DNA from: Dehalococcoidales bacterium | GTDB lineage: Bacteria > Chloroflexota > Dehalococcoidia > Dehalococcoidales > UBA3254 | Assembly: GCA_035477965.1 (NCBI GenBank) | Contig: DATIKD010000070.1 | Span: 1 to 42,447, forward strand | DNA length: 42,447 nucleotides | Direction: 5' to 3' | Part shown: in pieces, positions 1,707 through 31,439 of the stretch | How the letters are laid out: each line of letters starts with the position of its first letter | Position numbering within the stretch: position 1 is the stretch's first letter | Notes under the pieces: model-generated | Told to the model about the DNA's origin: nothing | What the model saw: the letters and a program-made list of their open reading frames with translations, nothing else | Database searches by the model: none | Translations under genes and position numbers: made by a program

Positions 1707-1797
1707 CAGTTAGCCTCCTTAATTGACAAGTAATTCCAAAAATAAGTTAGGGTTAGATGAGCGTTTTTAAAAATAGGCCTGTGCGGCTCGCTCTCCT

Positions 1798-3264: not shown

Positions 3265-3331
3265 CCTCCTTCAATCAGGGACAGGATAATCAGTTACGGA
3301 GCAGGCGTTATAGTTTGTTTGTAAACAGGGA

Positions 3332-4333: not shown

Positions 4334-4373
4334 ACCAGTAACTCCCCTTGATCAAGTAAATGGTTATTTAAGT

Positions 4374-5165: not shown

Positions 5166-5180
5166 TTAGTTCTCCCTGGT

Positions 5181-7304
5181 TCATCCATTTATATTGGAAC
5201 CCGCCGTTTCAGGCCTTTTAACAGAGGTCTCGAGTGAGGCGGCGGCCAGTTCGGCGATATCCATGACGGGCAGTATACTCTCGCCTTCTGCGGCCCTGGC
5301 GGCATCTTCAAACATCTGAAGGCAGAAAGGACAGGCGGTGACTAAGGCTTCAGCTCGTGTTTCGTTAGCCTGCTTTAAACGCATCTCACTGATTCTTTGG
5401 CCGGTTTTTTCTTCCAGCCACATCCGGCCGCCGCCTCCGCCGCAGCAGAAGGCGTTATTCTGGTTTTGGGCCATCTCAACTGTCTCGATGCCGGGAATGT
5501 TTTGCAGTATTTGACGGGGTGAGTCAAAAATATCGTTAAAGCGGCCCAGGTAACAGGGGTCCTGGTAGCTGACGATCTTCCGGATATTTCCGTTGAGCCG
5601 GATTTGTTCATTCTTTATCAAACCTGCCAGAAATTGGGTATGATGAACTACTTCAAACCGCCCCCCCAGTTGCGGGTATTCATTTTTCAGGGTGTTGTAA
5701 CAGTGCGGGCAGGCAGTGACTATTTTCTTGATATTATAACCCTGCAGAAGCTGGATATTGTTCAGGGCCAGCATCTGGTAAATATGTTCTGCTCCGAACC
5801 GCCTGGCAGGATCACCGCAGCACATCTCTTCTTCGCCCAGAATACCAAAATTGACTCCCGCTTCCTGCATCAGTCTGGCAACGGCCCGGGCTATCTTCAG
5901 ACTGCGGTCTTCCAGTGCTTCGGTACATCCCACCCAGAAAAGAACATCAATATTGCGGTCTTCACCGGCTATCTTTATACCCATCCCTTCTGCCCAGTCA
6001 GTGCGGGCATTTATTGTACCCCGCCAGGGATTACCCCTGACTCGTAAATTTTTTAGAACATCACGGGCAGTCTCGGTGGTCTGAATCATCTGCAGGTGGC
6101 GGCGGAAATCAATAATTTTATCAATATGTTCTATGCTGACCGGGCAGGTTTCCTGGCAAGCCCGGCAGGTGGTGCAGGACCAGATGGCCTCTTCACTGAT
6201 GACGCTGCCGGTTAGTGGTTTCTGGGCGGCATCCGTCTGAAGGCCTTTTTCACCGTCAACCGGTACAGCGCTAACCGTAGAAAGACTGTTTTTAAAAAGA
6301 GCCGGGCCGGATTTAAAAAGGTGTTCTCTGAGGTCTAAAACAAGTTCTCTGGGGGATAGCTCTTTACCGCTCAGCCTGGCCGGACAAACCATGTGGCAGT
6401 GTCCGCACCAGGTACAGGCGCCCAGGTCAAGGAGTTGTTTCCAGGTGAAGTCCTGCACACGGGACACTCCAATTGTCTCGGGTTTGTTCAGATCAACCGG
6501 CCTGAGCGACCCTTTCGGCTCCAGACTTTGAAAAGCCAGATTGAAAAAGGAAGCCAGCGGGTGCAGGTGTTTGGAGCGCGGAGCATAAATCAGGACTCCC
6601 AGCAGAAGTAAATAGTTTACCCACCAGAGACTGGTGAATAAGGTCTCCAAACTGGTCAGGGTGATGGCGGAACCGGCAAACCAACCGGCCAGGGCGCTCC
6701 CAACCGGCGGCCAGTCGCCAGGAGCGGCATAAAGGGCATATCCGGTGCCTGCTATTAAGTAATGCAACACCATCAGTACCAGAATGACTGTCAAGAGCAA
6801 GGCCTGAGTGATTTTTTCCTCAGCGTTTTGGGGCCGGGCCAGCCTCTCCGGCCTGATTATATAACGTTTTATGATCACCCACAGGATAGATATGATAACC
6901 AGGAACGCCGCCAGATCCAGGATCGAAAAACTGACTCGTTCAAAAGTACTGCCGTTATACACTGAGAACAGTCCCATTCCGGCTCCCAGGCCGATGAAAA
7001 TAACGTAGGCCAGGCTGAATAGTATCAGTCCCCAGAACATTAACGTATGTCCCAGAGCGGCGGGGTCTTTAAAAGTCAGGCTTTTCAGGTTGCCGGATTG
7101 GGTTAATATTAGAGACAGAGCCCTTTTCAGGCGGTAAAACAGACGGTCAAAGCGGTTTTCCGGACGCCCTTTTTTGATCAGACAGATATTAAAATAAACC
7201 CGTTGAACAAAGAGGGTCAGCGCGACAGCAAATAAAAACCAGAATAGAATGAATCCCGAAATACCCGGATAACCGCTGGTCAGAATTGACATAATGTATT
7301 CCAA
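5181..7304 (-). CDS. Membrane-anchored Fe-S oxidoreductase (DsrMK/HdrD/GlpC-like) associated with EtfAB
   Basis: 707 aa. The first ~260 aa are hydrophobic, with about 6 TM helices by eye. Two ferredoxin motifs follow (CTWCGHCHMVCP, CTTCRACQETCP), then two CCG domains (MCCGDPARRFG, FCCGGGGGRMW). Confidence 0.85.
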   Translation of the reverse strand: MEYIMSILTSGYPGISGFILFWFLFAVALTLFVQRVYFNICLIKKGRPENRFDRLFYRLKRALSLILTQSGNLKSLTFKDPAALGHTLMFWGLILFSLAYVIFIGLGAGMGLFSVYNGSTFERVSFSILDLAAFLVIISILWVIIKRYIIRPERLARPQNAEEKITQALLLTVILVLMVLHYLIAGTGYALYAAPGDWPPVGSALAGWFAGSAITLTSLETLFTSLWWVNYLLLLGVLIYAPRSKHLHPLASFFNLAFQSLEPKGSLRPVDLNKPETIGVSRVQDFTWKQLLDLGACTWCGHCHMVCPARLSGKELSPRELVLDLREHLFKSGPALFKNSLSTVSAVPVDGEKGLQTDAAQKPLTGSVISEEAIWSCTTCRACQETCPVSIEHIDKIIDFRRHLQMIQTTETARDVLKNLRVRGNPWRGTINARTDWAEGMGIKIAGEDRNIDVLFWVGCTEALEDRSLKIARAVARLMQEAGVNFGILGEEEMCCGDPARRFGAEHIYQMLALNNIQLLQGYNIKKIVTACPHCYNTLKNEYPQLGGRFEVVHHTQFLAGLIKNEQIRLNGNIRKIVSYQDPCYLGRFNDIFDSPRQILQNIPGIETVEMAQNQNNAFCCGGGGGRMWLEEKTGQRISEMRLKQANETRAEALVTACPFCLQMFEDAARAAEGESILPVMDIAELAAASLETSVKRPETAGSNING

Positions 7305-7394
7305 TCCGGACTTATCAGCGGCTCAAAAGACTGAGCTAACAGACAATTCGATATTTATCTGAGCTGATTGTCCAGTACTTATTCAAATTGTTAA

Positions 7395-8243
7395 CTAAAA
7401 AGTTTTAGCAATATTGGCTGATACTTGTTTGGCGGCTTCTTTTACTTCATGCAAGAATTCCGGCATTTTCGGTCGGATACGGCTTTCGGGGCCGATAATG
7501 CTTACAGCGGCCGGCTGGACATAGTTCAAAACCGGGGCTGAAATACAGATACAGCCGCTGATTCTTTCTCCATATGAGATGCAGTAACCGGCTCGCCGGG
7601 TTTTAAAAACTTCTGCTTGCAGAGTTTTTTCCGTAACCATCTGTCCGGTGGGATATTTGAGGTCCATGAACTGCATGGCGTTTTTCAGTTCATCATCGGT
7701 CAACTGTGACAGCAGGACTTTGGAGGATGCTCCGGCGGGAACATGTCCGGTCTTGCGAGTCACCTCTGCCACACGCAGATCAAATCTGGCGGGGATTTCC
7801 CGCAGGTTGATGTATTGAATACCGAGTAAAATATTGATAAAAACAGTTTCACCTGTGACATCGCTCAAATGACTCATGGCCTGGAACCCGCAGGTTATCA
7901 GGTGTTCGTGGGTAGTATATGGATTGGCCACTATTCTGGAAATAGAGTGCCCCAGATAGTACTGACGTTTTATCGGGTCCTGAATCGCCAGATTGGAATC
8001 TACCATGGCTTTCAGTATTCTGTGCACCGTGGCTTTATTAATCTGACAAATGCGGGCGATTTCGGTTATATTATATACCCCGTGACTGAGGCAGGTTAAA
8101 ACGTTGGCGGCATAAAAAATGGACTTTACAGCCGCCGGTTCGCCTTCCATTTTAACCAGTAAATCATTCATATCCATGCTGGTCAGAGGATTATTGGTAT
8201 CTTTTCTCCAGGAAATGGGAACATCTCTATCATATGGAGTCAT
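7395..8243 (-). CDS. IclR-family transcriptional regulator
   Basis: 282 aa. It has an N-terminal wHTH (ITEIARICQINKATVHRILKAMV) and a C-terminal IclR effector-domain-like region. AGGAG lies upstream of the ATG. Confidence 0.85.
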   Translation of the reverse strand: MTPYDRDVPISWRKDTNNPLTSMDMNDLLVKMEGEPAAVKSIFYAANVLTCLSHGVYNITEIARICQINKATVHRILKAMVDSNLAIQDPIKRQYYLGHSISRIVANPYTTHEHLITCGFQAMSHLSDVTGETVFINILLGIQYINLREIPARFDLRVAEVTRKTGHVPAGASSKVLLSQLTDDELKNAMQFMDLKYPTGQMVTEKTLQAEVFKTRRAGYCISYGERISGCICISAPVLNYVQPAAVSIIGPESRIRPKMPEFLHEVKEAAKQVSANIAKTF

Positions 8244-8347
8244 CCCGGTTCTCCTTTTTTTATTGACTGCCCGAAGGCAGCCGGGAGTTCTCGCTATTTT
8301 TGATATTGCAGAATATTTTAAATAATTCCAGTCAGTATAAACAGAAA

Positions 8348-9259
8348 CTAAATGACACCTCTTAGTCTGGGATCCAGCGCATCTCTGAGACCATCGCCCA
8401 TCATGTTAAAGCCGAAAACCACCAGCATTATAGCGATACCCGGTCCGAGACATAATTCGGGGTTGGTCAGCAGGAATTTATAGCCTTCATTAACCATACT
8501 GCCCCAGGCGGGTGTGGGGGGATTGATGCCGACTCCCAGGAAGCTGAGACCGGCCTCAGCCAGGATGGTGGAACCTAACCCGACGGTGAGCATAACCAGC
8601 AGGGGTTGAAAAGAGTTGGGCAGGATATGCCGGATCATGGTCCGCAGATTACTCATGCCGATGGACCGCGCTGCCAGAATATAATCATTTTGTTTAACTG
8701 CGGTAGCCACACCGCACATCATGCGGGCCGGCGCAGCAATAAAGCCAATACAAAGAGCAATTATTACGTTTCTCATACCGCCGCCCAGCAGCGAGGCGAT
8801 CAGCAACGCCAGTAAAAGCATGGGAAAAGCCATCAGCGCGTCCACAAAGCGCATGATGATCTGGTAGGTGAAGCCGCCAAAAAAAGCCGCAATCAGCCCC
8901 AGAGTGATGCCTACCAAAGTGGAAATAGAGACGGCAATAATCGCAATTATGAGTGAAATTCTTGAACCGTAAATCACCCGGCTCAACGTATCTCTGCCCA
9001 CTGAATCTGTGCCAAGCCAGTGGGTCAGGCTGGGTGATTGCAGTTTATTGGGCAAATTCAATTTGTAGGGGTCGTAAGGAGCCAGCAGCGGCGCAAAAAT
9101 TGCGGTAATGATGAATACCAGAATGATGATCATGCCGATCACAGGAAGAGGCCGGCCAAAAAATACAGAGAAGAAGCGTTTTGCCTCGCTGTATCTGGGT
9201 GGAGCCTGTGAAGCATCAATTTCGCCGACCGCTGGTACAGGTCCAGAGCTTTTACTCAT
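8348..9259 (-). CDS. ABC transporter permease (DppC/OppC-like)
   Basis: 303 aa, multi-TM, with an EAA-type loop (ILAARSIGMSNLRTMIRHILPN). Confidence 0.9.
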   Translation of the reverse strand: MSKSSGPVPAVGEIDASQAPPRYSEAKRFFSVFFGRPLPVIGMIIILVFIITAIFAPLLAPYDPYKLNLPNKLQSPSLTHWLGTDSVGRDTLSRVIYGSRISLIIAIIAVSISTLVGITLGLIAAFFGGFTYQIIMRFVDALMAFPMLLLALLIASLLGGGMRNVIIALCIGFIAAPARMMCGVATAVKQNDYILAARSIGMSNLRTMIRHILPNSFQPLLVMLTVGLGSTILAEAGLSFLGVGINPPTPAWGSMVNEGYKFLLTNPELCLGPGIAIMLVVFGFNMMGDGLRDALDPRLRGVI

Positions 9260-9270
9260 TTTCGAACTCC

Positions 9271-10227
9271 TTAGTCGAATCTAATCCTTGGTTCCAACCA
9301 ACCGTAAGAAATATCTACTGTCAGATTGGCCAATACCACTGCAATTCCCAGCAGTAGAACTACAGCCTGAACTACCATAAAATCCTGTTGCAGCATGGAG
9401 GATGCCATCAACCGGCCTATGCCTGGAATATTAAAGATGGTTTCAATCAAGACTGAACCGCCAAAAATCAAGCTAACCTGGAGGCCCATGATGGTAATAA
9501 CCGGAATAAGGGCGTTTTTCAAGGCATGTCTAGTAGTTATCAAGCGTTCACTGAGACCTTTGGCCCAGGCAGTGCGGATGTAGTCCTGCTGAATGACTTC
9601 CAGCATGGAAGAACGCGCCTGGCGGCATTGGGCGGCGATTGTGAAGAGGGACATACAAAATACCGGCATTAACAGTTGCTTGGTACTGAGCCAGAAATCG
9701 GTGAAGGGTGAAGTGTACCCGCCGGTCGGAAACCATCCCAGAGTTAATGAGAAAAGAAAGATCAGGAAAATACCTGCCAGAAAACCGGGCATGGTGATTC
9801 CGATGTTGGCCAGGAAGGTGATTATGGTGTCAATCCATTTGCCTCTTCTCATAGCACAGATCACACCGGCAAATATTCCCAGCGCGTTGCCAAAAATAAA
9901 AGCGGCAATCCCCAGGTGCAGGGTGATCGGGATACGCTGTTTGATTAAGGTACTAACACTGTCATCGTAAAAAATTGAAAGCCCAAAGTCACCCTGAGCC
10001 AGATTACCGACCCAGTTGATATATTGAACCGGCAGAATATCGTTCAGGCCGTATTTTTCGCGCAATTCCCATAACTGCTGTTCGTTCAGGGTGCCTATTT
10101 CCCCTGCGCTTAGATATAATACCAGCGGGTCGCCGGGTAAAAGGCGCATCACCAGGAAAACGATAATAGTAATCAAGATAATAGTGATTAGCCCTAATAA
10201 CAGACGCCGCGTAATATAAGTTGTCAT
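9271..10227 (-). CDS. ABC transporter permease (DppB/OppB-like)
   Basis: 318 aa. The N-terminus MTTYITRRLLLGLITIILITIIVF and the loop YIRTAWAKGLSERLITTRHALKNALIPV are typical of DppB. Confidence 0.9.
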   Translation of the reverse strand: MTTYITRRLLLGLITIILITIIVFLVMRLLPGDPLVLYLSAGEIGTLNEQQLWELREKYGLNDILPVQYINWVGNLAQGDFGLSIFYDDSVSTLIKQRIPITLHLGIAAFIFGNALGIFAGVICAMRRGKWIDTIITFLANIGITMPGFLAGIFLIFLFSLTLGWFPTGGYTSPFTDFWLSTKQLLMPVFCMSLFTIAAQCRQARSSMLEVIQQDYIRTAWAKGLSERLITTRHALKNALIPVITIMGLQVSLIFGGSVLIETIFNIPGIGRLMASSMLQQDFMVVQAVVLLLGIAVVLANLTVDISYGWLEPRIRFD

Positions 10228-10358
10228 CAGATACCTCCGGATAATTCAGTGCTCCGTTGTTTTACGCCATCGGTCATTATCCTGAATCAGCCAGGCCCAT
10301 CCATAAAATAATGGTGGCGATGATGAACCAGTGGTAAGATTTATCCAGTCTTTTCAGT

Positions 10359-10394
10359 GGGGCAACCTGCCGGTAGTTTATTTCAGGTTGCCCC
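10359..10394 (-). promoter_or_regulatory. Intercistronic stem-loop between the binding-protein gene and the permease genes
   Basis: A perfect 10-bp stem joins GGGGCAACCT (10359-10368) and AGGTTGCCCC (10385-10394) inside the 225-nt gap. No U-tract follows, so it is more likely an mRNA-stabilising or attenuating hairpin than a full terminator. Confidence 0.4.
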
Positions 10395-10452
10395 GCGTCT
10401 TCAGAGTTGTATTTTGCCAGAAAACCGGACTGGCTTTCTTTCGTTTAAAGTG

Positions 10453-12201
10453 CTATCTCTTCAACCAGATGTCAGCTGACTCATACCAGCCGCTGGTGCT
10501 GTTGGAATGGAACCAGAAGTTGTTAACCTGCCCTGCTCTGGAAACAAAGAGAGAATTGGTGCCGGCCAGCGGAATGCCGATGCTCTCATCATAAATTATT
10601 TTGACAAGTTCTTTGAGCTGGGCGATGCGCCGGGTCTCATCCGGCTGTGAATAAAGCTGGTCCCATTTGGCCTGCCATCCGGGCGGACGGTAAAAACTGG
10701 TAAAGTTATCTTTATCACCCCAGCGGGCGACGTAGTTTACCAGATTGACCGGTTGTGGGAAACCGGTATAAAGAATACCTTCCCACCCCTCTCTTTGCAG
10801 AGTGGTGATGCGCGGGACGGTGGCGATGTCAACTTCAGCCTCGATGCCCACATCTTTGAGATAGGTTACCAGGGTGGTTAAAATATCCCGGCGGGCCCTG
10901 GTATCGGTTAGTAACTTGGTTTTAAAGCCTCTGGGATAACCGGCGGCAGTCAGCAGTTGTCTCGCTCTGGCCGGGTCGTAGGTACGGGCAGCCAGGTTGG
11001 GATCATACCATGAGTTCTGAATTGTAGCCATCTGGTAGGTAGTGGTGTATAACCCCATGCCGATGCCTTCGGAAATGCCTTTTCGGTCTATGGCATATTC
11101 CAGGGCTTCACGCACCCTTTTATCCGCAAAGGGTGACTTCGGGTTATTGCCGTCAGGCATAATCATATGCACCCAGTCAAGACCCTGCGGACCTGATTCA
11201 AAATTCTCCTTTCTTAACTGCAGTACATCCACCGGCTCGATCGGTTGGGCGCGGTGAATCTCTCCGGCTTTGAAAGCCATCAGCATAGCAGTAGGATCGG
11301 TGATGCAGCGATAGGTGATGGAATCCAGGTAGGGTTTACCTGGTTGCCAGTAGCCGGCGAATTTAACTCCTTTTACAAAATCATCCCGCTTCCAGCTATC
11401 GAATCTGAATGGACCGGTACCTACGGCCCGCTCTTCAGGGGTCTTCTTGGTTTGCATAGCGGTAGGCGAGGACATCTGGCCGATTACAGTCTGGGCCAGG
11501 CGCAGCAACAGGGTGTAATCAAACTCAGTCAAATTCAAGCGTATGGTATGGGAATCAATTATGTCATAGGAAGAGATTTTTCTGAGTACGGCGGAGCCGG
11601 CCAGATTGGCGGCCAGTGTCTGCTCCAGATTATATTTGACCGCTTCGGCGTTGAAATCAGTTCCATCATGGAACTTGACTCCCTTGCGCAGTTTAAAGGT
11701 GATGGTTTTTCTGAAAAGGTCGGTTTCCCAGGATTCAGCCAGCCAGGGGAACAACTTTTCATTTTCATCCGTTCTGATGAGAGGTTCAAAAATAGGATAG
11801 GTGATAGACGGAGAGTTGGCATCGATATGGCTTCCCATATTGGTGATACCCAGGGTGGAGGCCCAGATAAAATGGCCTCCCAATTGCTGGGGTGCCGAGA
11901 CTCTCCATGCACCCGCGGGCAGGGCCGACTGTACAGTCGGAGAAGCGGCCGGAGTAGTAGGTGAGGCGGGAGTAGCGGGGGTTGTTCTGGGAGTTGTGGG
12001 AGTTGTGGCAGCCGGAGTTGTAGCTGCAGGAGTGGTTGCAGCCGGAGTAGTGGCAGCCGGAACAGCAGGCGTTGTGGCCGGAGTGGTTACGGTAACAGGA
12101 GCAGTTGGAGTTGCAGGGGTGGCAGTGGGAGTGGCCTGACAGGCCGGAAGTACCAGAGTCAGTATCAACAGGAATGCCAATGGAATGAAATACTTTTTCA
12201 T
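10453..12201 (-). CDS. ABC transporter substrate-binding lipoprotein, family 5 (peptide/nickel/opine type) with a long Pro/Thr/Ala linker
   Basis: The track ORF starts at a GTG (12207). The ATG at 12201 has GGAGG 5 nt upstream, so I prefer it. It has a signal peptide and lipobox (LVLPAC), a ~70-aa TPATP-rich linker, then an SBP_bac_5-like body. Confidence 0.9.
   Translation of the reverse strand: MKKYFIPLAFLLILTLVLPACQATPTATPATPTAPVTVTTPATTPAVPAATTPAATTPAATTPAATTPTTPRTTPATPASPTTPAASPTVQSALPAGAWRVSAPQQLGGHFIWASTLGITNMGSHIDANSPSITYPIFEPLIRTDENEKLFPWLAESWETDLFRKTITFKLRKGVKFHDGTDFNAEAVKYNLEQTLAANLAGSAVLRKISSYDIIDSHTIRLNLTEFDYTLLLRLAQTVIGQMSSPTAMQTKKTPEERAVGTGPFRFDSWKRDDFVKGVKFAGYWQPGKPYLDSITYRCITDPTAMLMAFKAGEIHRAQPIEPVDVLQLRKENFESGPQGLDWVHMIMPDGNNPKSPFADKRVREALEYAIDRKGISEGIGMGLYTTTYQMATIQNSWYDPNLAARTYDPARARQLLTAAGYPRGFKTKLLTDTRARRDILTTLVTYLKDVGIEAEVDIATVPRITTLQREGWEGILYTGFPQPVNLVNYVARWGDKDNFTSFYRPPGWQAKWDQLYSQPDETRRIAQLKELVKIIYDESIGIPLAGTNSLFVSRAGQVNNFWFHSNSTSGWYESADIWLKR
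11999..12058 (-). repeat. Four tandem 15-nt repeats encoding (AATTP)n within the lipoprotein linker
   Basis: The units are ggagttgtggcagcc / ggagttgtagctgca / ggagtggttgcagcc / ggagtagtggcagcc on the plus strand. They are in frame and give TPAATTPAATTPAATTP. Confidence 0.85.
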
Positions 12202-12224
12202 GCTCACCTCCTCAATATTTGTAA

Positions 12225-12242
12225 AATTCGATTTTTCGAATT
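12225..12242. promoter_or_regulatory. Perfect 7-4-7 palindrome AATTCGA-TTTT-TCGAATT, candidate operator upstream of the ABC operon
   Basis: Read directly from the sequence. It lies 24-41 nt upstream of the preferred ATG of the binding-protein gene. Confidence 0.4.
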
Positions 12243-12789
12243 CCTACTTGTCCTGACGGAAAAAATTATCAAGTTATAGAAGGTGCTCGGGCAAGGGCTT
12301 TATTAACCTGGGTTGAAAATGTGTCTCCCAGTTCTCCACAAAAATGAGCCGGCGCCCTTTGATTACCTGTATTTTCAATATGTAAATGCGTTTGGGACCG
12401 ATTCCATTCGTACATTTTGGTGGTAATGGGCCGGTTTATCCCGGTATCCGTCCTCTTTTATAAGATTTACTGGTATCCGTTAAATTAGCAACTATAGTTG
12501 CAATTATACCGATGTCACTAATATACGCTTGTCGCTATTGTTTGTCAATAGTGCAAACAGGACAAAGTTTATATTGTTTTCCGGGCGGTATTCTTCAAGA
12601 CGGTAAATAGCCTGGTTTATGGCTCATTATGAAAAAGGGTTTTAGTTCCCATGGGAAAAAATGCCGGCAGAATGGCAGTGAAAGTATCACATTTCGTAAG
12701 TTTATTGTGACCCTTCAGTAATTATTGTGAGGTTTTTGTGATGACCGGATGATAGGCTAAATCCAGCCGCAGTATTTGAGAGAAAAAAT

Positions 12790-13722
12790 GTGAACAACCA
12801 GGTTTACCGGTTCCGGCTGGGATCTTTGGTTTGCACTGTCATCAGTGACGGCAGGTATGTTTACGCTCCCCCGGTTTACCCTCCTCCGGCGGATTTTATA
12901 TTTTCGGATGCTCGCCGCGAACAGATCGAAGATGCTTTTCGAAAACGCATTTTAAAACTGGAAGAGAGATATTTCTGGAACAGCGCCTGCAACTGTCTGC
13001 TGGTGGATTCCGGAGGCCAGTTACTCCTAATAGATTCCGGGGGCGGCAGTTTTGGACATGAAACCGGAAAATTGTATAAGAATCTGCTGGCAGCCGGGGC
13101 CTGTCCGGATACCATAAACTGGGTAGTTTTAACTCACGGCCATCCTGATCACATCGGGGGTGCCGCCAGTACTGAAGGCCGGGCCATGTTTCCCCAGGCT
13201 CATTACATTATGTCTAAAGATGAATGGGACTTCTGGCGTTCCGGGCGGGCCGAGGGCGTTATACGCGAATTCAATAAAGATATGCTCCTGAAAACGGAAT
13301 ATGGAAAGCTGCCGGCTATTCAGCATCAGTTAATTCTGATTGAAGGAGAAACGGAAATAATCCCGGGAGTCTTTGTCCTTCCCATTCCCGGCCATACCTC
13401 AGGACAAATCGGGGTGTGGTTGGCCTCTCAAGATAAACGTCTTTTGTATCTTTCGGATTCATTCTTTCACCCCGTTCAAATTCAATGCCCCGAGTGGAGT
13501 GGTATAGCTGACCTGGATTCAGACCAGACCATTGTCACTCGGTACTGCCTGCTGCGCCAGGCGGTCAGTGAACATGCCATGGTGATGGGCTTTCATTTCC
13601 CTTTTCCAGGTTTGGGTTGGGTAGTTCGCTATAAAAACCGTTTTATCTGGCTGGAACACAAGATTACAGAAGAAAACCCGATGCCTGAGCATGTTCCGGC
13701 CTGGGAAAAGAACCCAGTATAA
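12790..13722 (+). CDS. MBL-fold metallo-hydrolase (lactonase-like)
   Basis: 310 aa with a GTG start. It has the HxHxDH motif LTHGHPDHIGG, with downstream His and Asp residues (PIPGHTSG). Confidence 0.85.
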   Translation: MNNQVYRFRLGSLVCTVISDGRYVYAPPVYPPPADFIFSDARREQIEDAFRKRILKLEERYFWNSACNCLLVDSGGQLLLIDSGGGSFGHETGKLYKNLLAAGACPDTINWVVLTHGHPDHIGGAASTEGRAMFPQAHYIMSKDEWDFWRSGRAEGVIREFNKDMLLKTEYGKLPAIQHQLILIEGETEIIPGVFVLPIPGHTSGQIGVWLASQDKRLLYLSDSFFHPVQIQCPEWSGIADLDSDQTIVTRYCLLRQAVSEHAMVMGFHFPFPGLGWVVRYKNRFIWLEHKITEENPMPEHVPAWEKNPV

Positions 13723-13734
13723 GGACCGTGATCA

Positions 13735-14280
13735 ATACAAGCTGAAGCGCAAGCGAAACACCTGATTCGCCTTGCTTGTCATGCCGGATGCGGGGCGGAT
13801 TCGTCTGCGGTCATGGCTGTTTAGGGGCCCCTCCCCGCCGGATTCTTCGCCCCGATCAGGTATAAAGGCATGCTCGGGGCTCAAGAATGACGACGTGGGG
13901 ATGGATTCTCCTTTTTCGTTGTCATGTTTGAGCGCCACGAAGGACCTGGTGGTCCCTTTCGGTTGTCATCCTGGAAGCCTCGAATGGCGAGGCTGAAGGA
14001 TCTGGACGAGGGGTGGTAAGCGGTTCGATTCCTGCGTTCGTGTCAAATTAGCCCCAGTTATTGAGTCCCCCTCCCATCCAGATTCTTCGCCCCGCTCAGG
14101 CATGAAGACGTTCTCGGGGCTCCAGAATGACAGGTTTGGGATAGGATTCCCTCCGTCGTTGTCATCCTGGAAGCCTCGAATAGCGAGGCTGAAGGATCCG
14201 GACGAGGGGCGGTAAGTGGTTTGTCATGTTGGAGGCCTCGAATGGCGAGGCCGAAACATCTGGAGGAGGGTGGTCAGACT
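13735..14280 (+). repeat. Composite cluster of hairpin repeats: two B-type and three A-type units plus degenerate units
   Basis: A-type two-tier hairpins lie at 13968-14001, 14164-14197 and 14226-14259, with consensus gtcATCCTggaaGCCTCGaatggCGAGGCtgaAGGATc. B-type hairpins lie at about 13843-13890 and 14081-14128 (ATTCTTcGCCCCGa...TCGGGGCtcAAGAAT). The same A unit recurs at 19787, 27729-27962, 39274 and, degenerate, at 37283-37360. Confidence 0.9.
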
Positions 14281-25182: not shown

Positions 25183-26766
25183 TTACTCATCGCTGGGCGG
25201 ACTGACTTCAGAAATCTCCAGGATGCGGTCAACCCGAAAAGTGCGTTCAGCCTTTCGGGTCAGGCAAAAAGCCCGCATTCCCAAATAACTAACCCCCAGA
25301 TAGTTCATTTCTCCCACCAAAACAGGCTTAATAGTACGGCGAGATTTGACATCATCCGGCTTGAGATAAACAATCTCCACCCAGCCATTACCGGCAATGG
25401 CATTCTGAATCAAGCGCAGTTTTTCGGCCGCCGGCAAATTCCGTTCAGATTTTTGATACTGGTAGCGGGTCAGAAAGTCCACCACTTTCCAGTCCATCCA
25501 GATGTGCTTCTTTAATATCGGCCGTTTCAGGACGATGCCTTCCAGAGTGGTACAGCGCGAGAGGGCCACATACATTTGACCATGGGCGAAGGTGCCGCGT
25601 CCGATATCGATGATGACTTTGTTGAAAGTCTTTCCCTGGCTTTTATGAATGGTAATAGCCCAGGCCAGCATGAAGGGAAACTGGGTAAAGCTGCCTACTA
25701 TCTCAGTTTTTAAACTCCCGGCTTCCAGGACGAACCGGGAGATTTCCCATGTAAAAGGCGATACCTCTACTTCGTCTCCGTCAGAAAGAGTGACAATTAC
25801 ATGGGGACTGCCGTCCTTATCTTTGGTAAAACCACTGATTTCACCCATTGTTCCGTTGACCCAGCGTCCTTCGAAATCATTGGTCAGCATCATAATCTGC
25901 GCGCCGTTTTTAACATCCAGCTCCACCTGGGTGGGCAGATATTCATCTCCAAAATCACCTTCTCGCACGCCAATGAAAGTCCGCAACTTACCGCGAAGCT
26001 TTCTGAGCTGCAGGGCATTGATTTTAGCCGCCATTTCGTTAGTGGTGGTCAGTTGTATATAGAGTTCGCTGGCAGGCGGTTCAAAATCAGGCTGGCAGCG
26101 GCTGTTCAATAACTGCAGACCTTCTTCGGTAATGGTTTTATTGCGTATGGAGTTCAGCAGGTTAATAAATTCAGCATCATGCTGTCGGTAGATTTTCTCC
26201 AGTTCCAGGAATTCCATTTTGAAATCGGTGAAGACCCGGGCGGAATAAAAGTAGGGGGTTTCGTAACGTAAGCTGAAACTATTTTTTTCCAGGCTGGTTA
26301 CCACCGGAGGAAGTTGATAGAGGTCACCGATGAAAACCATCTGGATGCCGCCAAAAGGTACGCCAGTATGAGGGCCGTTCAGCCGCAGGAATTTGTCCAC
26401 GCAGTCCAGGAGGTCGGCCCTGACCATGGAAATTTCATCAATGACCAGAGTTTCCAGTTTCTGATAGAGGGAGCCTTCTTCATCGGAAGCCCGCAGTTTT
26501 TTTACCAGGTCAAGCGAAATATTGGGTTTGAACTTAAAGAAGGAGTGGATGGTCTGCCCGCTGACGTTAAGGGCAGCCACACCTGTCGGAGCCAGAACTA
26601 CTACCTTTTTCTTAGTGTTGCGGCGGAAATAACCCAGCAGGGTTGACTTGCCGGTACCTGCGCGTCCGGTGATAAAGATGCTCTGGCGAGAGTTCTCAAG
26701 AATATACAGAGCCTTTCTGAATTGTTCATTGAGTTCTACTACCGGGAGTTCTGCGGGCTTTGACAT
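25183..26766 (-). CDS. Pif1/RecD-family SF1B helicase with a C-terminal WYL-like domain
   Basis: 527 aa. Walker A is GRAGTGKSTLL and motif II is LVIDEISMV. The Pif1-type motif GDLYQLPPV is present, followed by ITIHKSQGKTF and YVALSRCTTLEGI. The C-terminal ~80 aa end in ...AFCLTRKAERTFRVDRILEI, a WYL-like signature. Confidence 0.85.
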   Translation of the reverse strand: MSKPAELPVVELNEQFRKALYILENSRQSIFITGRAGTGKSTLLGYFRRNTKKKVVVLAPTGVAALNVSGQTIHSFFKFKPNISLDLVKKLRASDEEGSLYQKLETLVIDEISMVRADLLDCVDKFLRLNGPHTGVPFGGIQMVFIGDLYQLPPVVTSLEKNSFSLRYETPYFYSARVFTDFKMEFLELEKIYRQHDAEFINLLNSIRNKTITEEGLQLLNSRCQPDFEPPASELYIQLTTTNEMAAKINALQLRKLRGKLRTFIGVREGDFGDEYLPTQVELDVKNGAQIMMLTNDFEGRWVNGTMGEISGFTKDKDGSPHVIVTLSDGDEVEVSPFTWEISRFVLEAGSLKTEIVGSFTQFPFMLAWAITIHKSQGKTFNKVIIDIGRGTFAHGQMYVALSRCTTLEGIVLKRPILKKHIWMDWKVVDFLTRYQYQKSERNLPAAEKLRLIQNAIAGNGWVEIVYLKPDDVKSRRTIKPVLVGEMNYLGVSYLGMRAFCLTRKAERTFRVDRILEISEVSPPSDE

Positions 26767-27573: not shown

Positions 27574-27714
27574 CATTTTCTTTATGACCAGCCTAAAATC
27601 AGGCAACCTCTGTTTCTGCTCACTGCTGTCCCAATTATGCCCAGAATGATAGACAACTTGGTTAAAATTCTCCATTCTGGTTGTAAAGAGTTATTTTATG
27701 GAGAAAACAGGGGT

Positions 27715-27966
27715 TGGCCCCCCTCCGGATCCTTCAGCCTCGCCAATCGAGGCTTCCAGGATGACAACGAACAAGGGGTCGGATCCTTCAGCCTAGCCAT
27801 TCGAGGCTTCCAGGATGACAACGAAAAAGGGACCGGATCCTTCAGCCTCGCCATTCGAGGCTTCCAGGATGACAACGAAAATGGGGCATTAGAGAGCCAG
27901 ACACGGGGACTGGCCGCCCCGCCGCCGGATCCTTCAGCCTCGCCATACGAGGCTTCCAGGATGACA
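27715..27966 (-). repeat. Tandem array of four A-type hairpin units (reverse orientation), spaced 54, 54 and 92 nt
   Basis: The hairpins lie at 27729-27762, 27783-27816, 27837-27870 and 27929-27962 (ATCCTTCAGCCTCGCCAATCGAGGCTTCCAGGAT and variants). The inter-unit segments resemble one another (acaacgaaNNNgggg). Confidence 0.9.
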
Positions 27967-28201
27967 GGAATAAAGGTCTCCGGATGCCTGGCTGTCGCTC
28001 CGGCATGACTCCCTGTTTTGACACCGTGATGATGAAAAATCAGGGTATCAGGCTCGTTACAGATTTTTATGTTGGACAAGAGTGATAAGAGGGCGAAAAA
28101 AGGCGAACCCAGGACACGGGGCTATATGATTGACTCTGCGCCGGTCCGGCTCACACCTTAATATACCCCCGGCCGCTTAAATACCGCCATAAAGCCGGCT
28201 T

Positions 28202-30238
28202 TTATCCAGAAGGAGACCAGGGCGTCCACCAGCGCCGCGGGGGACGGATGCGCCGGCCCAGGAATCTCTCCAACCCGGCTTTTTGCAGGACGGTCCGGTT
28301 GTTGCCGCTGGCTTCTTCATCAATCAGAGTTGAGGGGACATCATCCCATTCAAAGTCACGCCGTCCAAAGGCGTCCCGCTGTTCCCAGACAATCACTTTG
28401 TCCCGCTCCATTTTCCAGCCGTTGGGCAGACTGCTTTCATTTCTGGCATAGGAGGTTGGCCGCAGGAGGCTGTCCAGGCGGGATTTAACGCGGTCATAAC
28501 GCTTTTCGGCATAATTCAACCAGGTTACCGGCTGACACCAGTCCGGCAGTTTTTCACCCGTGAATTCCGCTATTAGACCGGATATTGTCCCGGAAGATAA
28601 AGCCAGCCAGTCCTGAGGCAGCCGTTCAGACTCAAGTTGGTCCATTATCCTGGACAGATAACAACGGTAAAAGTGCCCTGTCAACCTGCGCCGCATTTCC
28701 TGCACCTTACTCTGCAAACGCTGGCGCATTTCCTCGTTATGAGGCGGCAAAGCGGTGGCAGTGTAAATCATCAGGCTGCGTTTGACCACCTCATCCGGGA
28801 AAGATTGAGGTTCGGCGTTCATGGAAAGAATGAAGCCGGGGTGTTCTTTGACCGGCGGCTGAAGTTCATTTTTTATCATATCCCGGCCGTGCGTCCTGAA
28901 AGCGGCGCGTCCGATGTCATCAAAAACCACCGGCAGGCGTTTATAGCTTTGCTGCAGGGCCTGCAGCCTGGCGGTGGTGAAGTTTTGTTTTTCTATCACC
29001 GGCGAATATCCGAACATGGAAGTCATCAGGGTATCCACCAGGCTGGTTTTGCCGCAGTTGGATTTACCAAAAATGATGGCAAAAGCCGGGAAGCGAATGA
29101 TATCACTGTCCTGCAAAAGGGCCAGAGCGCGCATATCGCACATAAAGGGAGAGAAATACAGCCAGGACATCAAGGTGAAGTAATCCCGCTGCAAACGCGG
29201 CACATTGCCTTCAAAGGCCCCTTCATAGTTGGTGAAATATTCCAGGATCAAGCCGGCATCTGTCCTGGCATAATCATCCTTCCAGTCAAGCGGGTACAAT
29301 TTGCCGGAAAGGTTGGCGGTCCGGTTGACCCGGTCCAGTGAAAAATAACGGTTATCGGCTTCTTCGGCCGACTTAACCAGGCGGATACGGCTGATTTCTT
29401 TTTTAATTTCAGGCGTAATTCTCTGTTTGCCGTTACGGATGGGCGGCAAAGCGGCCGAAAGAGTGGGGCCGAGGGCTGCGACTACTTTCTCAACTCGTTC
29501 TACCTGCACCGGTATGCTGATTTCGATCTCTTCGGCTGAGGGTGCATCTATGACCAGAGTGGAGGGTGAGCTGGTCATGACCGGAGTGCTGGATATTTCA
29601 ATTTCAGCGGTGCTGATACGGCTGTCTGGAAGGTCTATTTCATCCGCCGCCGCATCGCGTATCCGGTCGAACATCCGGTTGTAGTGCTGCCAGGCTTTTT
29701 CATCGTTGTCAAACTTGACCAGTGTTTCCGGTTGAGTGCCGGAAAAGGCCCGCTCAGAAAGATTGGCTGAGCCAACTATAACACGGTTACACCCTCCTTT
29801 ACCGGAGAGCAAATACAATTTGGCATGGGCGATGTATTTTCTGAGCACGTAAAAACGGGCGCCGCCGGAGTGTACTTTTTCCAGCACATAAATGTGGCGC
29901 TCATCCTTTAGTCCCATGATAGCTGCCCGCGTATCGCTAACCACCACTTTTTGAAAGGCCAGGATCTCTTTCATATCCCGCAGTATACCGTAGTGTCCGA
30001 AAAGGCACTCAAAACTCCGGAATGAATAGTTATCCAGCATCCTGACGATGGCATTGATACTGGAAGAATAAGTCAACACCCGCAGGCTATCGTAATCTTT
30101 AAACAGGTCCCAATCAAATTTCTGTTCATTTAGAAAGCGGGCGTCCACCACCCGCAAGCCAGTGCCGTCATCCAGACTAAGTCCTCGCTGGATTTCCTGG
30201 GCACCGTCAGATTCACCGAAAAGTCCGTTGGCCGGCAT
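28202..30238 (-). CDS. Fusion protein: N-terminal single-HKD PLD-family nuclease domain and C-terminal SF3/VirE/D5-like P-loop NTPase
   Basis: 678 aa. The HKD motif is IAHAKLYLLSGKGGCNRVIVGSANLS (His138, Lys140, GSAN 156-159; His codon at 29827-29825). Walker A is GKSNCGKT (aa 391-398), Walker B is LPVVFDD (aa 435-441), and LSMN (Asn473) is motif-C-like. Confidence 0.75.
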   Translation of the reverse strand: MPANGLFGESDGAQEIQRGLSLDDGTGLRVVDARFLNEQKFDWDLFKDYDSLRVLTYSSSINAIVRMLDNYSFRSFECLFGHYGILRDMKEILAFQKVVVSDTRAAIMGLKDERHIYVLEKVHSGGARFYVLRKYIAHAKLYLLSGKGGCNRVIVGSANLSERAFSGTQPETLVKFDNDEKAWQHYNRMFDRIRDAAADEIDLPDSRISTAEIEISSTPVMTSSPSTLVIDAPSAEEIEISIPVQVERVEKVVAALGPTLSAALPPIRNGKQRITPEIKKEISRIRLVKSAEEADNRYFSLDRVNRTANLSGKLYPLDWKDDYARTDAGLILEYFTNYEGAFEGNVPRLQRDYFTLMSWLYFSPFMCDMRALALLQDSDIIRFPAFAIIFGKSNCGKTSLVDTLMTSMFGYSPVIEKQNFTTARLQALQQSYKRLPVVFDDIGRAAFRTHGRDMIKNELQPPVKEHPGFILSMNAEPQSFPDEVVKRSLMIYTATALPPHNEEMRQRLQSKVQEMRRRLTGHFYRCYLSRIMDQLESERLPQDWLALSSGTISGLIAEFTGEKLPDWCQPVTWLNYAEKRYDRVKSRLDSLLRPTSYARNESSLPNGWKMERDKVIVWEQRDAFGRRDFEWDDVPSTLIDEEASGNNRTVLQKAGLERFLGRRIRPPRRWWTPWSPSG

Positions 30239-30380: not shown

Positions 30381-30409
30381 ATTATAGGCTGACGGTACGA
30401 ATGACACAA
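30381..30409 (-). promoter_or_regulatory. Candidate sigma70-type promoter for the PLD-ATPase gene (TTGTGT-17-TATAAT)
   Basis: On the minus strand the -35 TTGTGT lies at 30409-30404 and the -10 TATAAT at 30386-30381, with a 17-nt spacer. It sits about 143 nt upstream of the ATG. Confidence 0.35.
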
Positions 30410-30620: not shown

Positions 30621-31439
30621 CTATAAGAGTCTGGGCTTGTTCTCCGGCGCGGCCTTTCCGTTATGAAGTTGGCTGTTCTCTCCCTGATAACCCGGGTCGG
30701 GCGGGAGTTCAGGCTGGCCGGCGGCAGACTGAGCCAGTTGGTCACACCATTCGTTTTCTGTTTGAAAATCATGCCCTTTAACCCACCTGAATTCAACACT
30801 GTGCGTCTCACATATCTTCAGCAGTCTTTCCCACAGGTCAGGGTTGATGGCTTTATCCTTGTTGTTTCTTTTCCAGTTGTTGGCCCGCCACCTTTTAGCC
30901 CAGCCAAGGTTAATAGCTTCAACCAGGTACTGGGAGTCGCTGTAAATGACAGCTCCGGTTTGAGGCGGCAAAGTTTCCAGGGCAACTATGGCGGCCATGA
31001 TTTCCATGCGGTTGTTAGTGGTAAGCCTGAATCCGCCGGACCGGGCCCGGGTTTGCCCGCGGCATTTGTAAATAATCCCGTAGCCGCCCGGCCCAGGATT
31101 GCCGGCACAGGCTCCGTCTATCCAGATTTCCAGAGCACCGCCGGATAACCATTCAGGGGTGATTTCAGTGTCAAGCGGTCCTTTGCCGAGCTTATTTTTG
31201 AGACCTGTGGGCAACTGCGGCACTTGCCGCGGCTGGTTTTCTTCAACCACTGCATAAAACTTTTTAACCACTCTTAAAGCTGCCGCCCTTTCTTTGAGGT
31301 CAACCATCCAGGCTTTATTCTCGGGGTCCCACTTGCGGGATTGGGTGCCGGATTTCAGTTCTGCCACGAAATCAGTATGGTAAGCGGCAGTGATTATCAT
31401 TCGCTGTTCGATGTATTGAATATGAGCGGTGTCGATCAT
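30621..31439 (-). CDS. rnhA: RNase HI domain protein with an unrecognised ~110-aa N-terminal extension
   Basis: 272 aa. The C-terminal RNase H fold has an intact DEDD set (IDGACAGNPGPGGYG, NNRMEIMAAIVALE, IYSDSQYLV, WVKGHDFQTENEWCDQLA). The N-terminal part contains KWDPENKAWMV. AAGGAG lies upstream. Confidence 0.85.
   Translation of the reverse strand: MIDTAHIQYIEQRMIITAAYHTDFVAELKSGTQSRKWDPENKAWMVDLKERAAALRVVKKFYAVVEENQPRQVPQLPTGLKNKLGKGPLDTEITPEWLSGGALEIWIDGACAGNPGPGGYGIIYKCRGQTRARSGGFRLTTNNRMEIMAAIVALETLPPQTGAVIYSDSQYLVEAINLGWAKRWRANNWKRNNKDKAINPDLWERLLKICETHSVEFRWVKGHDFQTENEWCDQLAQSAAGQPELPPDPGYQGENSQLHNGKAAPENKPRLL

Follow-up and report, generated by a model that had tools for sequence, protein, structure and literature searches.

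What does a nuclease of the phospholipase D (PLD) superfamily do on one polypeptide with a helicase module of superfamily 3 (SF3)? The question is raised by a gene in a 42,447-nt contig stretch of a Dehalococcoidales bacterium (the window; coordinates below are positions in this whole stretch, and residue numbers are those of the 678-aa window protein). The gene is a complete open reading frame (ORF) of 678 aa plus stop with an ATG start, located at 28202..30238 on the minus strand. Its product combines a PLD nuclease with an SF3/Cch-like ATPase and falls into the Pfam family PF27394 'Aq_aa27'; we refer to it as the PLD-SF3 gene. The answer to which we lean, at a little better than an even chance, is that it encodes a stand-alone, single-chain, restriction-like defence nuclease driven by nucleoside triphosphates (NTPs), a motor variant of the theme known from SauUSI and NgoAVII.

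An earlier reading of the window, made from the sequence alone, had proposed this ORF, a product of three parts and a set of motif residues (H138/K140, N159, K397, D440/D441 and N474). The ORF was borne out in position, strand, start and length, and all motifs lie at the residues quoted. The start codon is right, as the N-terminus MPANGLFGES lines up with the N-termini of homologues. One database protein (P0001, labelled 'phospholipase D-like domain-containing protein [Dehalococcoidales bacterium]') is 100% identical to the window protein, and among 5.8 billion proteins searched there are more than 1301 homologues, the best 120 of which share 69-79% identity and are of equal length. With so many homologues there is no doubt that the gene is genuine. 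The three-part architecture is confirmed too and consists of a single-HKD PLD nuclease, a spacer and an SF3/VirE/D5-like P-loop ATPase.

Domain architecture of the window protein

At the N-terminus lies a PLD nuclease domain of the BfiI/NgoAVII type, with a single HKD motif (aa ~28-200, 29639..30157; this and all other parts of the gene lie on the minus strand). It was recognised by Pfam and Foldseek and is modelled with a predicted local distance difference test score (pLDDT) of 75-91. Two Pfam models score above their curated cut-offs over aa 113-194, namely PLDc_2 (30.7 bits, cut-off 27) and RE_NgoFVII (29.2 bits, cut-off 23.8), the latter representing the N-terminal PLD domain of the NgoFVII restriction endonuclease. 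The structure ranked first by Foldseek in the PDB is R.NgoAVII (4rct_A, E 9.1e-6, probability 1.00). At E <= 0.1, PLDc_2 is found in 59 of 59 distant members of the family and RE_NgoFVII in 56 of 59; five of the 59 also give weak matches to Tdp1 (Tyr-DNA_phospho). The single-HKD nuclease of the sequence-only reading is thus confirmed by both Pfam models and by the match to R.NgoAVII. The motif, A137-H138-A-K140-LYLL ... G156-S-A-N159-L-S161, lies at 29756..29827, and its residues H138, K140, S157 and N159 are invariant in our alignments A1 (close homologues) and A4. BfiI and R.NgoAVII dimerise via the PLD domain, and a lone single-HKD domain forms no active site (PMC4267654).

Regarding the middle of the protein, where a linker of ~200 aa without motifs had been proposed, the AlphaFold2 model shows a different situation, with a low-confidence linker of ~100 aa followed by a well-folded N-domain of the helicase module. 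The model was built from 84 sequences (24-79% identity) and reaches a mean pLDDT of 81.5 (80-98 in the ATPase and the C-terminal region); an earlier model from 36 close homologues was discarded (pLDDT 54, with the entire P-loop region below 50). The linker (aa ~201-298, 29345..29638) has a pLDDT of 50-73, dropping below 50 at aa 235-242 and 286-294. It is conserved inside the subfamily and variable family-wide, with a column conservation across the family of 0.15-0.32. The N-domain of the helicase module (aa ~299-380, 29099..29344, pLDDT 87-98) contains a beta-hairpin region and two long helices, and its conserved residues are D327, F342, G344, Y353, W359, P364 and R370. It probably falls inside the 428-column Foldseek alignment to Cch described below.

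The last ~380 residues form an AAA+ helicase module of the SF3/Cch/D5-like kind, in which the Walker A, Walker B, B'-like, sensor-1 and arginine-finger positions are all intact. The ATPase core (aa ~381-500, 28739..29098) was identified by Foldseek and by a profile search of PDB sequences. Its Walker A motif G391-KSNCG-K397-T398 is located at 29045..29068 and its Walker B motif (L435)-P436-VVF-D440-D441 at 28916..28933. Between Walker B and motif C there is a pair of residues, H450...K456 (28871..28891), which from this position is a candidate for motif B', the counterpart of the DNA-contacting hairpin of SF3 helicases; K456 is invariant in A4, where H450 reaches at least 90%, and K456 also reaches at least 90% in the distant representatives. 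Motif C, or sensor-1, is S472-M-N474 (28817..28825), which ends a predicted strand at 469-473. R487 (28778..28780), invariant in alignments A2, A3 and A4, stands 13 residues after sensor-1, which makes it a good candidate for the arginine finger. The order is that of SF3 proteins, with Walker A, Walker B, B' and the sensor-1 Asn within ~100 residues and the arginine finger after them, all conserved to at least 90-100%. The chain ends with a helical bundle (aa ~501-595) and a small beta-rich terminal domain (aa ~600-665), together at 28205..28738 with a pLDDT of 74-98; Y524, Y527, D543, S548, P565, W608 and P635 are conserved there, and this region is a possible DNA- or target-binding module.

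The assignment of the ATPase comes mainly from its fold. The structure ranked second by Foldseek in the PDB is Cch of SCCmec (5dgk_A, E 1.4e-5, 428 columns), followed by the primase-helicase of African swine fever virus, SauUSI (7clg_A, E 1.3e-3), papillomavirus E1, monkeypox virus E5 and vaccinia D5, with the entries 8iqh, 2v9p, 7apd, 9ilz, 8hwd and 8hwc at E 1e-3 to 5e-3; TM-scores are low (0.2-0.4) because the query is a multi-domain protein. Among viral models, Foldseek retrieved DUF927 proteins, an 'active ring-shaped helicase' and D5/COG3378/VirE primase-helicases at E 3e-6 to 1e-4. Sequence profiles gave less. A profile of distant members aligned Walker A through Walker B to 5dgk in a sub-threshold match (E 0.025), the window protein as a single sequence had no match among PDB sequences, and a NCBIfam scan of it returned nothing meaningful. 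In Pfam the ATPase part is matched only below threshold, at best by the SF3 model RNA_helicase (18.2 bits, cut-off 21.5), and in the distant members the sub-threshold matches are RNA_helicase (16/59), VapE-like (3/59) and DUF5906 (3/59). By sequence profile the module therefore belongs to none of the named SF3 families RNA_helicase, DUF927, D5_N/Primase_Cterm and VirE/VapE, so that the SF3/VirE/D5-like ATPase proposed earlier holds at the level of the fold and not as membership in a named SF3 family.

Family and conservation

The sequence-only reading could not place the protein in a named family, which turned out to be wrong. PF27394.1 'Aq_aa27' is assigned to P0001, and hence to exactly the window protein, and to every listed relative; these assignments are precomputed annotation of the protein collection, and PF27394 covers the C-terminal part of the family proteins. 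The relatives carry names as well, such as "PLD family protein", "NgoFVII family restriction endonuclease" and "restriction endonuclease PLD domain-containing protein" (NCBI), or "hypothetical". A hidden Markov model (HMM) search of 1.84 billion cluster representatives recovered 1034 clusters at E <= 1e-3 and 320 at E <= 1e-30, i.e. more than 1000 clusters counted at 50% identity, and most of the full-length matches are 650-680 aa long and span both halves. The PLD-SF3 family is thus large, catalogued by databases and experimentally unstudied; no functional study of PF27394 or 'Aq_aa27' was found in the literature searched.

Conservation across the family was scored on 81 distant full-length representatives with identities down to ~20%, and the counts are out of 82 sequences. 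H138, K140, S157, N159, G391, K397 and N474 are present in all 82 and position 398 is T or S in all 82; G396, P436 and R487 are present in 81, and D441 in 79 (with E in two more). Catalytic residues are overall conserved to 96-100%. The HKD and Walker residues, whose loss among homologues would have spoken against the sequence-only reading, are thus retained in 79-82 of 82 sequences, and the co-conservation of HKD and ATPase residues indicates that both enzymatic activities are under joint selection throughout the family. In the close-homologue alignment A1 the mean column identity is 80%, consistent with strong purifying selection.

The pairing of the two domains is absent from described defence systems, as the sequence-only reading had suspected: no combination of HKD and SF3 is found in PADLOC v2 or in the searchable literature. 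A search of PADLOC-DB v2.0.0 gave no significant full-length match, only a local match to ZacB over the HKD motif (9.6e-6, aa 138-192) and P-loop noise. No description of a PLD/HKD domain fused to SF3, D5 or DUF927 was found in the literature searched. A comparative survey lists fusions of D5-type SF3 helicases to Toprim, PrimPol, RepB', PolA and HerA/FtsK and of HKD nucleases to SF2 helicases, and an HKD-SF3 fusion is not among them (PMC10853773).

Distribution and mobility of the gene

Among GTDB species representatives, full-length copies with 62-74% identity occur in Dehalococcoidia and other Chloroflexota (including Caldilineaceae), in Latescibacterota and in Acidimicrobiia. The names of isolates and contigs suggest that many of the carrier metagenome-assembled genomes (MAGs) stem from communities of sponges or groundwater. 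The distribution is patchy and the gene tree, as far as sequence comparison tells, is in conflict with taxonomy. For instance, the copy in a complete 5.66-Mb Latescibacterota chromosome (locus L018) is 82% identical to Dehalococcoidia copies and 67% to other Latescibacterota copies.

Nucleotide similarity across unrelated contexts is confined to the ORF, up to ~130 nt upstream and up to ~85 nt downstream of it, and in one subgroup a conserved sigma70-like promoter (TTGACG-17-TACGAT) travels with the gene. Because the shared DNA is limited to the ORF and short flanks, with the promoter in that subgroup, the gene evidently moves between phyla as a single-gene cassette. The promoter lies ~130 nt upstream in L011, L014, L017, L018, L020 and L066 and is preceded by a variable palindromic element, which in L017 is a perfect palindrome (GCCCATTGTGAT-ggg-ATCACAATGGGC); the 5' leader of L066 contains a small inverted repeat (CAACC-TT-GGTTG). 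The palindromic element and the leader repeat may serve the transferred cassette as operators or mark its boundaries.

All 80 listed loci have one copy per genome, and the copies are old (~80% nucleotide identity). We found no conserved terminal repeats or iterons beside the gene, and a transposon with flanking inverted repeats or target duplications was rejected since none was convincing at the compared loci. Insertion next to tRNA genes was dismissed as too weak an explanation, as such genes abut the PLD-SF3 gene in three of 60 loci.

Genomic context across the family

The context statistics given here are descriptive, with counts raised by related genomes and a PADLOC neighbour comparison that is crude. 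When all ORFs of 82 related loci were clustered, no universal neighbour emerged. The gene needs no conserved partner gene. A DNA methyltransferase is absent beside it in the window and is not conserved among the 82 loci, and hsdM is adjacent only in the Latescibacterota clade.

In that clade the gene lies 27-46 bp from a gene for an AlbA_2/HATPase_c_4 protein and from the Type I gene hsdM, and the surroundings include zeta-toxin-like, Fic, DUF488, HigB (L090) and hsdS genes. In L052, L054, L059, L060-L063 and L090 (gene at ~6000-8000 or 8001-10040 of the locus), hsdM is 31-46 bp away on the same strand and hsdS a few kb downstream. A replacement of hsdR by the PLD-SF3 gene was considered for this Type I locus, and no DExH-box ORF that could be hsdR was found within the 6-8 kb flanks. 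In L052, L057 and L063 the second gene upstream is a large ORF (at least 1427 aa) that contains a Walker A motif and has no match among PDB sequences.

Several single loci have comparable surroundings. In L091 the gene is placed between a ScoMcrA-like HNH enzyme with NOV_C and a 1196-aa SIR2_2 protein, and in L096 between a Type IIG enzyme and GmrSD_N and SRA-HNH genes. L092 (Chloroploca asiatica) has an EVE-HARE-HTH-AAA_5 protein on one side and DEAD-helicase and BrxC_BrxD genes on the other, with an integrase close by. A PDDEXK_13/REase-ARP gene follows in L093, where PIN-DUF433 pairs stand on the flanks. L094 has a phage-type integrase 1 kb away and orphan genes around, and the context of L095 is ambiguous.

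The clearest recurrence was seen in a remote subfamily of 667-aa proteins abundant in human-gut metagenomes. Its commonest neighbour is a SauUSI-like enzyme with PLD, ResIII, Helicase_C and DUF3427 (PADLOC mREase_IV, 2.7e-232; e.g. L107:3542-6706), present in 24 loci and at most 300 bp upstream in 12 of them. GmrSD_N, PglZ, BrxL and Type IIG methylase families each occur in 5-10 loci, and 28 of the 60 gut loci with adequate flank hold at least one of SauUSI-like, GmrSD, PglZ, BrxL and Type IIG genes. The tandem arrangement with SauUSI-like enzymes suggests complementary target ranges. An association of homologues with defence islands or mobile elements thus exists in parts of the family.

The gene of the gut subfamily has further recurrent neighbours. 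In part of the loci it is followed by a WYL-WCX regulator. A 354-aa protein without any Pfam or PADLOC match is encoded directly downstream (-34 to +33 bp) in 10 loci (L107:8757-9818 and nine others) and is possibly a clade-specific partner. We also noticed a fused ADP-ribosylglycohydrolase-Macro protein in eight loci (L111:2311-3720 and seven others) and an isochorismatase-family protein in six (L131:10420-10944 and five others), types of NAD/ADP-ribose-metabolism genes that are sometimes seen in conflict systems. A NUDIX hydrolase was considered as a partner, as one occurs in the window, in L097 and in six gut loci, and rejected as a coincidence because these proteins share only the generic NUDIX box.

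Plasmids, phages and viral contigs

Plasmids of Acetobacter and Komagataeibacter (Acetobacteraceae) carry the gene in accessory regions rich in toxin-antitoxin modules (VapBC, BrnTA, HicAB, RelE/ParE), and a RepA initiator and a TraA relaxase are encoded on the plasmids themselves. On the Thermus oshimai JL-2 plasmid pTHEOS02 (L100, 3983-7041), a transposase gene has apparently inserted into the copy and separates the N-terminal from the C-terminal part, which leaves a decayed copy and indicates that the gene is dispensable.

The family has no match in 50,697 phage genomes and a match on only one of 2.9 M viral contigs (IMG/VR). This contig (L097, IMGVR_UViG_3300029573_000197) encodes a MobA/VirD2 relaxase, MobC/NikA, ParA and ParB within 700-13900 and looks like a plasmid or mobilisable element. 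The homologue on it is flanked by a NUDIX gene and a gene with a metallo-beta-lactamase (MBL) fold and Ada-Zn; NUDIX and MBL genes also lie close to the window gene. A Pfam scan of the window protein detected no primase, Rep or origin-binding domain, and the protein does not belong to a characterised replication-initiator or primase-helicase family, an outcome that would have overturned the sequence-only reading.

Proposed function and alternatives

A mechanism can be proposed by analogy with the hexameric Cch, E1 and D5 proteins, of which Cch translocates 3'-5' (PMC7581432). The ATPase module would assemble as a ring, with R487 acting in trans, load onto DNA and translocate using NTP. Assembly of the ring, or the meeting of two complexes, could then pair the single-HKD PLD domains and so license cleavage of the tracked DNA. 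In NgoAVII/CglI and SauUSI cleavage requires ATP hydrolysis (PMC4267653, PMC7913695), and single-gene defence enzymes that combine an N-terminal PLD nuclease with a variable C-terminal module have been demonstrated by experiment as a class (PMC12191111). Self and non-self might be told apart by modified bases (Type IV-like), foreign DNA structures or replication intermediates, for which the C-terminal helical and beta-rich region (aa 500-665) is a candidate sensor and the likely specificity element. As no cognate methyltransferase travels with the gene, the discrimination would have to rest on modified bases or foreign DNA structures, and the lack of this partner together with the company of Type IV enzymes favours a modification- or structure-dependent restriction-like enzyme.

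Several observations weigh against this proposal. The window is ordinary chromosome, and its own subfamily is without a defence-island signature. The immediate neighbours in this close subfamily fall into 117 distinct families, mostly housekeeping (SecA, RtcB, DnaN, transporters), with ~8 PADLOC-type matches compared with ~7 for 117 families of far-flank controls. The branches with the strongest island evidence share only 25-47% identity with the window protein. The gene's rate of evolution also does not exceed that of its syntenic neighbours (in 17 of 24 pairs it is more conserved than their median), which is atypical for arms-race genes. No modified-base reader (SRA, EVE, DUF3427) was detected by the Pfam scan of the window protein. 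Finally, hexamer formation, DNA translocation and nuclease activity are for the whole family drawn from analogy. The idea of a defence or mobile-element protein, raised by the sequence-only reading, is thus favoured by the contexts in other subfamilies (islands, plasmids), whereas the window's own subfamily stays at control level.

In fold the ATPase comes closest to helicases that replicate mobile elements and viruses (Cch, D5, E5, E1, DUF927, primase-helicases), and Cch is related to the SaPI Rep initiator-helicases (PMC7581432). The protein could hence serve the replication or mobilisation of a mobile element, in the manner of HUH-SF3 Rep proteins or the self-loading SaPI Rep and Cch helicases; the PLD domain would nick via a covalent phosphohistidine, the SF3 module would unwind from the nick, and the chromosomal copies would be remnants or minimal elements. 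The compact cassette spread, the copies on plasmids and on a plasmid-like contig, the tRNA genes adjoining in 3/60 loci and the integrases near L092 and L094 agree with such a role, which we nevertheless regard as rather unlikely: the carrier plasmids have their own RepA and TraA, phage genomes and, but for one contig, viral contigs are free of the gene, most loci are without integrase, primase or other element genes, conserved terminal repeats and iterons are missing, the gene is single-copy, and the nuclease is of the restriction-enzyme subtype. In a more radical version, which we hold to be very improbable, a minimal self-mobilising element would encode this protein and no other, and defence would not be the protein's function, or not the only one; the PLD domain would act as a phosphohistidine nickase/strand-transferase and the SF3 ring would peel off or replicate a ~2.2-kb cassette. 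Such an element would be, by analogy, a PLD-based counterpart of the HUH-helicase Rep proteins and the Helitron transposases, and it would explain why only the ORF and ~80-130 nt of flank are common between phyla and sites and why some copies abut tRNA genes. The age of the copies, their single number per genome, the missing terminal repeats and the restriction-type nuclease weigh against it.

The housekeeping neighbourhoods in the window's subfamily point in another direction, towards a chromosomal DNA-maintenance enzyme without a role in immunity, which in Dehalococcoidia and the bacteria that live with them would act on stalled forks, R-loops, protein-DNA adducts or further kinds of aberrant structure. 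Ordinary-to-slow evolution under strong purifying selection, with conservation equal to that of the neighbours, is consistent with this, as are the weak Tdp1 matches and, in the window, the position beside RNase HI and a Pif1-family helicase. That adjacency, however, is unique to the window, no repair or replication partner is conserved in any branch, and the patchy distribution, the conflict between gene tree and species tree, the location of other branches in defence islands or plasmid accessory regions and the dispensability suggested by the transposase-disrupted plasmid copy fit poorly; we consider the role unlikely. Whether the nuclease spares the host is a separate matter. As an abortive-infection or addiction toxin, it would have a motor that senses an invader cue (e.g. 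replication intermediates) and a PLD domain that degrades host and invader DNA, or it would stabilise the DNA that carries it. The Acetobacteraceae plasmid copies among VapBC, BrnTA, HicAB and RelE/ParE, the PIN/DUF433 pairs flanking L093, HigB near L090, the WYL-WCX regulator in part of the gut subfamily and the lack of both a methyltransferase partner and a recognisable modified-base reader can be read in this sense. Yet no antitoxin or regulator is conserved family-wide, and the context fits Type IV-like restriction equally, especially in tandem with SauUSI-like enzymes. We give a toxin only a slim chance, noting that abortive infection or addiction is a variant of defence and that the present data do not separate it from restriction.

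The neighbourhood in the window

The window gene lies between a gene for a NUDIX hydrolase and an array of three 54-bp repeats on one side and RNase HI on the other, and the Pif1-WYL helicase, an MBL hydrolase, subunits of a 2-oxoacid:ferredoxin oxidoreductase and a hybrid-cluster protein are encoded nearby. The sequence-only reading had placed the gene away from any metabolic context, which is contradicted by the NUDIX and MBL hydrolases, the oxidoreductase subunits and the hybrid-cluster protein that flank it. It had also attached meaning to RNase H, the Pif1-WYL helicase and the repeat array as neighbours; this could not be upheld, as they are conserved in none of the 82 related loci. We rejected all of these, and NUDIX with them, as functional partners, since none recurs in those loci.

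RNase HI (30621-31439, minus strand) is matched by the NCBIfam model of ribonuclease HI over aa 103-242 (2.6e-50), and its N-terminal extension of ~100 aa shows a weak, sub-threshold match to the HARP annealing-helicase repeat (E 0.012). The helicase of the Pif1 family, which ends in a WYL domain (25183-26766, minus strand), has partial matches to PADLOC models of candidate systems, namely PDC-S68 (3e-23), type IV RecD and RecD-like. It could itself be related to defence or mobile elements, and it is unlinked to the PLD gene in other genomes.

The three 54-bp repeats are located at 27725-27887. Two further copies lie ~14 kb away in another intergenic region (13959-13997 and 14155-14193, minus strand), each with at most two mismatches over 39 nt, where none is expected by chance. 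The repeat unit holds a short palindrome (GCCTCG...CGAGGC) and overlaps the mechanically called ORFs 27637-28008 (+) and 27696-28079 (-). From its sequence, the array looks like a dispersed element of this genome, similar to repetitive extragenic palindromes or miniature inverted-repeat transposable elements (REP/MITE-like), which is not tied to the PLD-SF3 gene.

Regarding expression signals, the sequence-only reading gave the gene its own candidate promoter, and this was sustained only in part. A sequence TTGTGT-17 nt-TATAAT (30381..30409, minus strand), ~140 nt upstream of the ATG, is visible by eye; it is weak, with a -35 element that fits in only 3/6 positions, and the consensus promoter scan upstream of the window gene reported none. 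The upstream spacer of ~380 nt has no Rfam match for a non-coding RNA, and conservation there is limited to a promoter-sized stretch in one subgroup. Downstream, ~80 nt past the stop, there is a terminator-like hairpin followed by a T-run (28106..28123, minus strand), a consensus match only, and the count of such hairpins in the region is not above the shuffled expectation.

Comparison with known systems

To our knowledge, ATP-dependent PLD restriction enzymes are known only with motors of superfamily 2 (SF2), as in SauUSI, NgoAVII/CglI and PbeA-like proteins. Ring helicases of the SF3/D5/Cch type are regarded as hallmarks of viral and mobile-element replication, while modular nuclease-ATPase proteins are a familiar theme in defence. 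A ring-shaped motor that feeds DNA to a nuclease is found in McrBC, where the translocase is an AAA+ GTPase; this is a Type IV system without a methyltransferase that often lies in defence islands. McrBC differs from PLD-SF3 in consisting of two proteins, in its PD-(D/E)xK nuclease and in the modified-base-reading N-domain of McrB, and there is no sequence relationship between the two.

The Type IV enzyme SauUSI of Staphylococcus aureus (PDB 7clg; PMC7913695) resembles PLD-SF3 in being a single chain with an N-terminal PLD domain followed by an ATP-driven motor and in being encoded by a solitary gene without a methyltransferase. Its motor, in contrast, is a dimeric SF2 helicase (ResIII/Helicase_C) combined with DUF3427, a reader of 5-methylcytosine and 5-hydroxymethylcytosine, whereas PLD-SF3 has an SF3/AAA+-like motor, presumably ring-forming, and the window protein has no match to ResIII, Helicase_C or DUF3427. 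NgoAVII/CglI (PDB 4rct; PMC4267653, PMC4267654, PMC5861437) provides the closest solved nuclease structure, and its PLD nuclease cleaves only when coupled to NTP hydrolysis by the motor. Compared with restriction-modification systems of this type, PLD-SF3 is without an adjacent cognate methyltransferase, an SF2 helicase and a B3 domain. The END/BfiI class (PMC12191111) shares the same nuclease subtype and the modular plan of an N-terminal PLD domain with a variable C-terminal module. For END, defence by a single gene has been demonstrated experimentally, and PADLOC and DefenseFinder miss it. The same paper mentions PLD fusions with helicases besides other C-terminal modules and describes no SF3 or Aq_aa27 partner (PMC12191111). 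Unlike PLD-SF3, END proteins are shorter than 500 aa and have an inactive EndoIII-like sensor and no ATPase, and BfiI has a B3-like domain and a methyltransferase partner.

On the motor side, Cch of SCCmec (DUF927; 5dgk), SaPI Rep and D5/E5/E1 are the best matches in fold and sequence for the C-terminal ~430 residues (PMC7581432), and they share with it the order of Walker A, Walker B, B', sensor-1 Asn and Arg finger. All of these are replicative or initiator helicases that occur fused or paired with primases, polymerases or origin-binding domains inside mobile elements, while PLD-SF3 has an N-terminal restriction-type nuclease, is a solitary gene and reaches the threshold of no DUF927 or D5 Pfam model.

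The family joins an SF3-type motor and a restriction-type nuclease in one chain, and does so in Chloroflexota, Latescibacterota, Actinomycetota, plasmids of Acetobacteraceae and Thermus, and human-gut bacteria. If it is indeed a family of defence enzymes, it would add a single-gene system undetected by PADLOC v2 and show a replicative-helicase module recruited for immunity. It would also offer a compact NTP-gated nuclease as a model for how a ring translocase can license a nuclease that must dimerise. Least supported as this function is for the window's own subfamily, we infer that PLD-SF3 is an NTP-dependent PLD restriction-type enzyme in which a ring-type SF3 motor takes the place of the SF2 helicase of SauUSI and NgoAVII/CglI.

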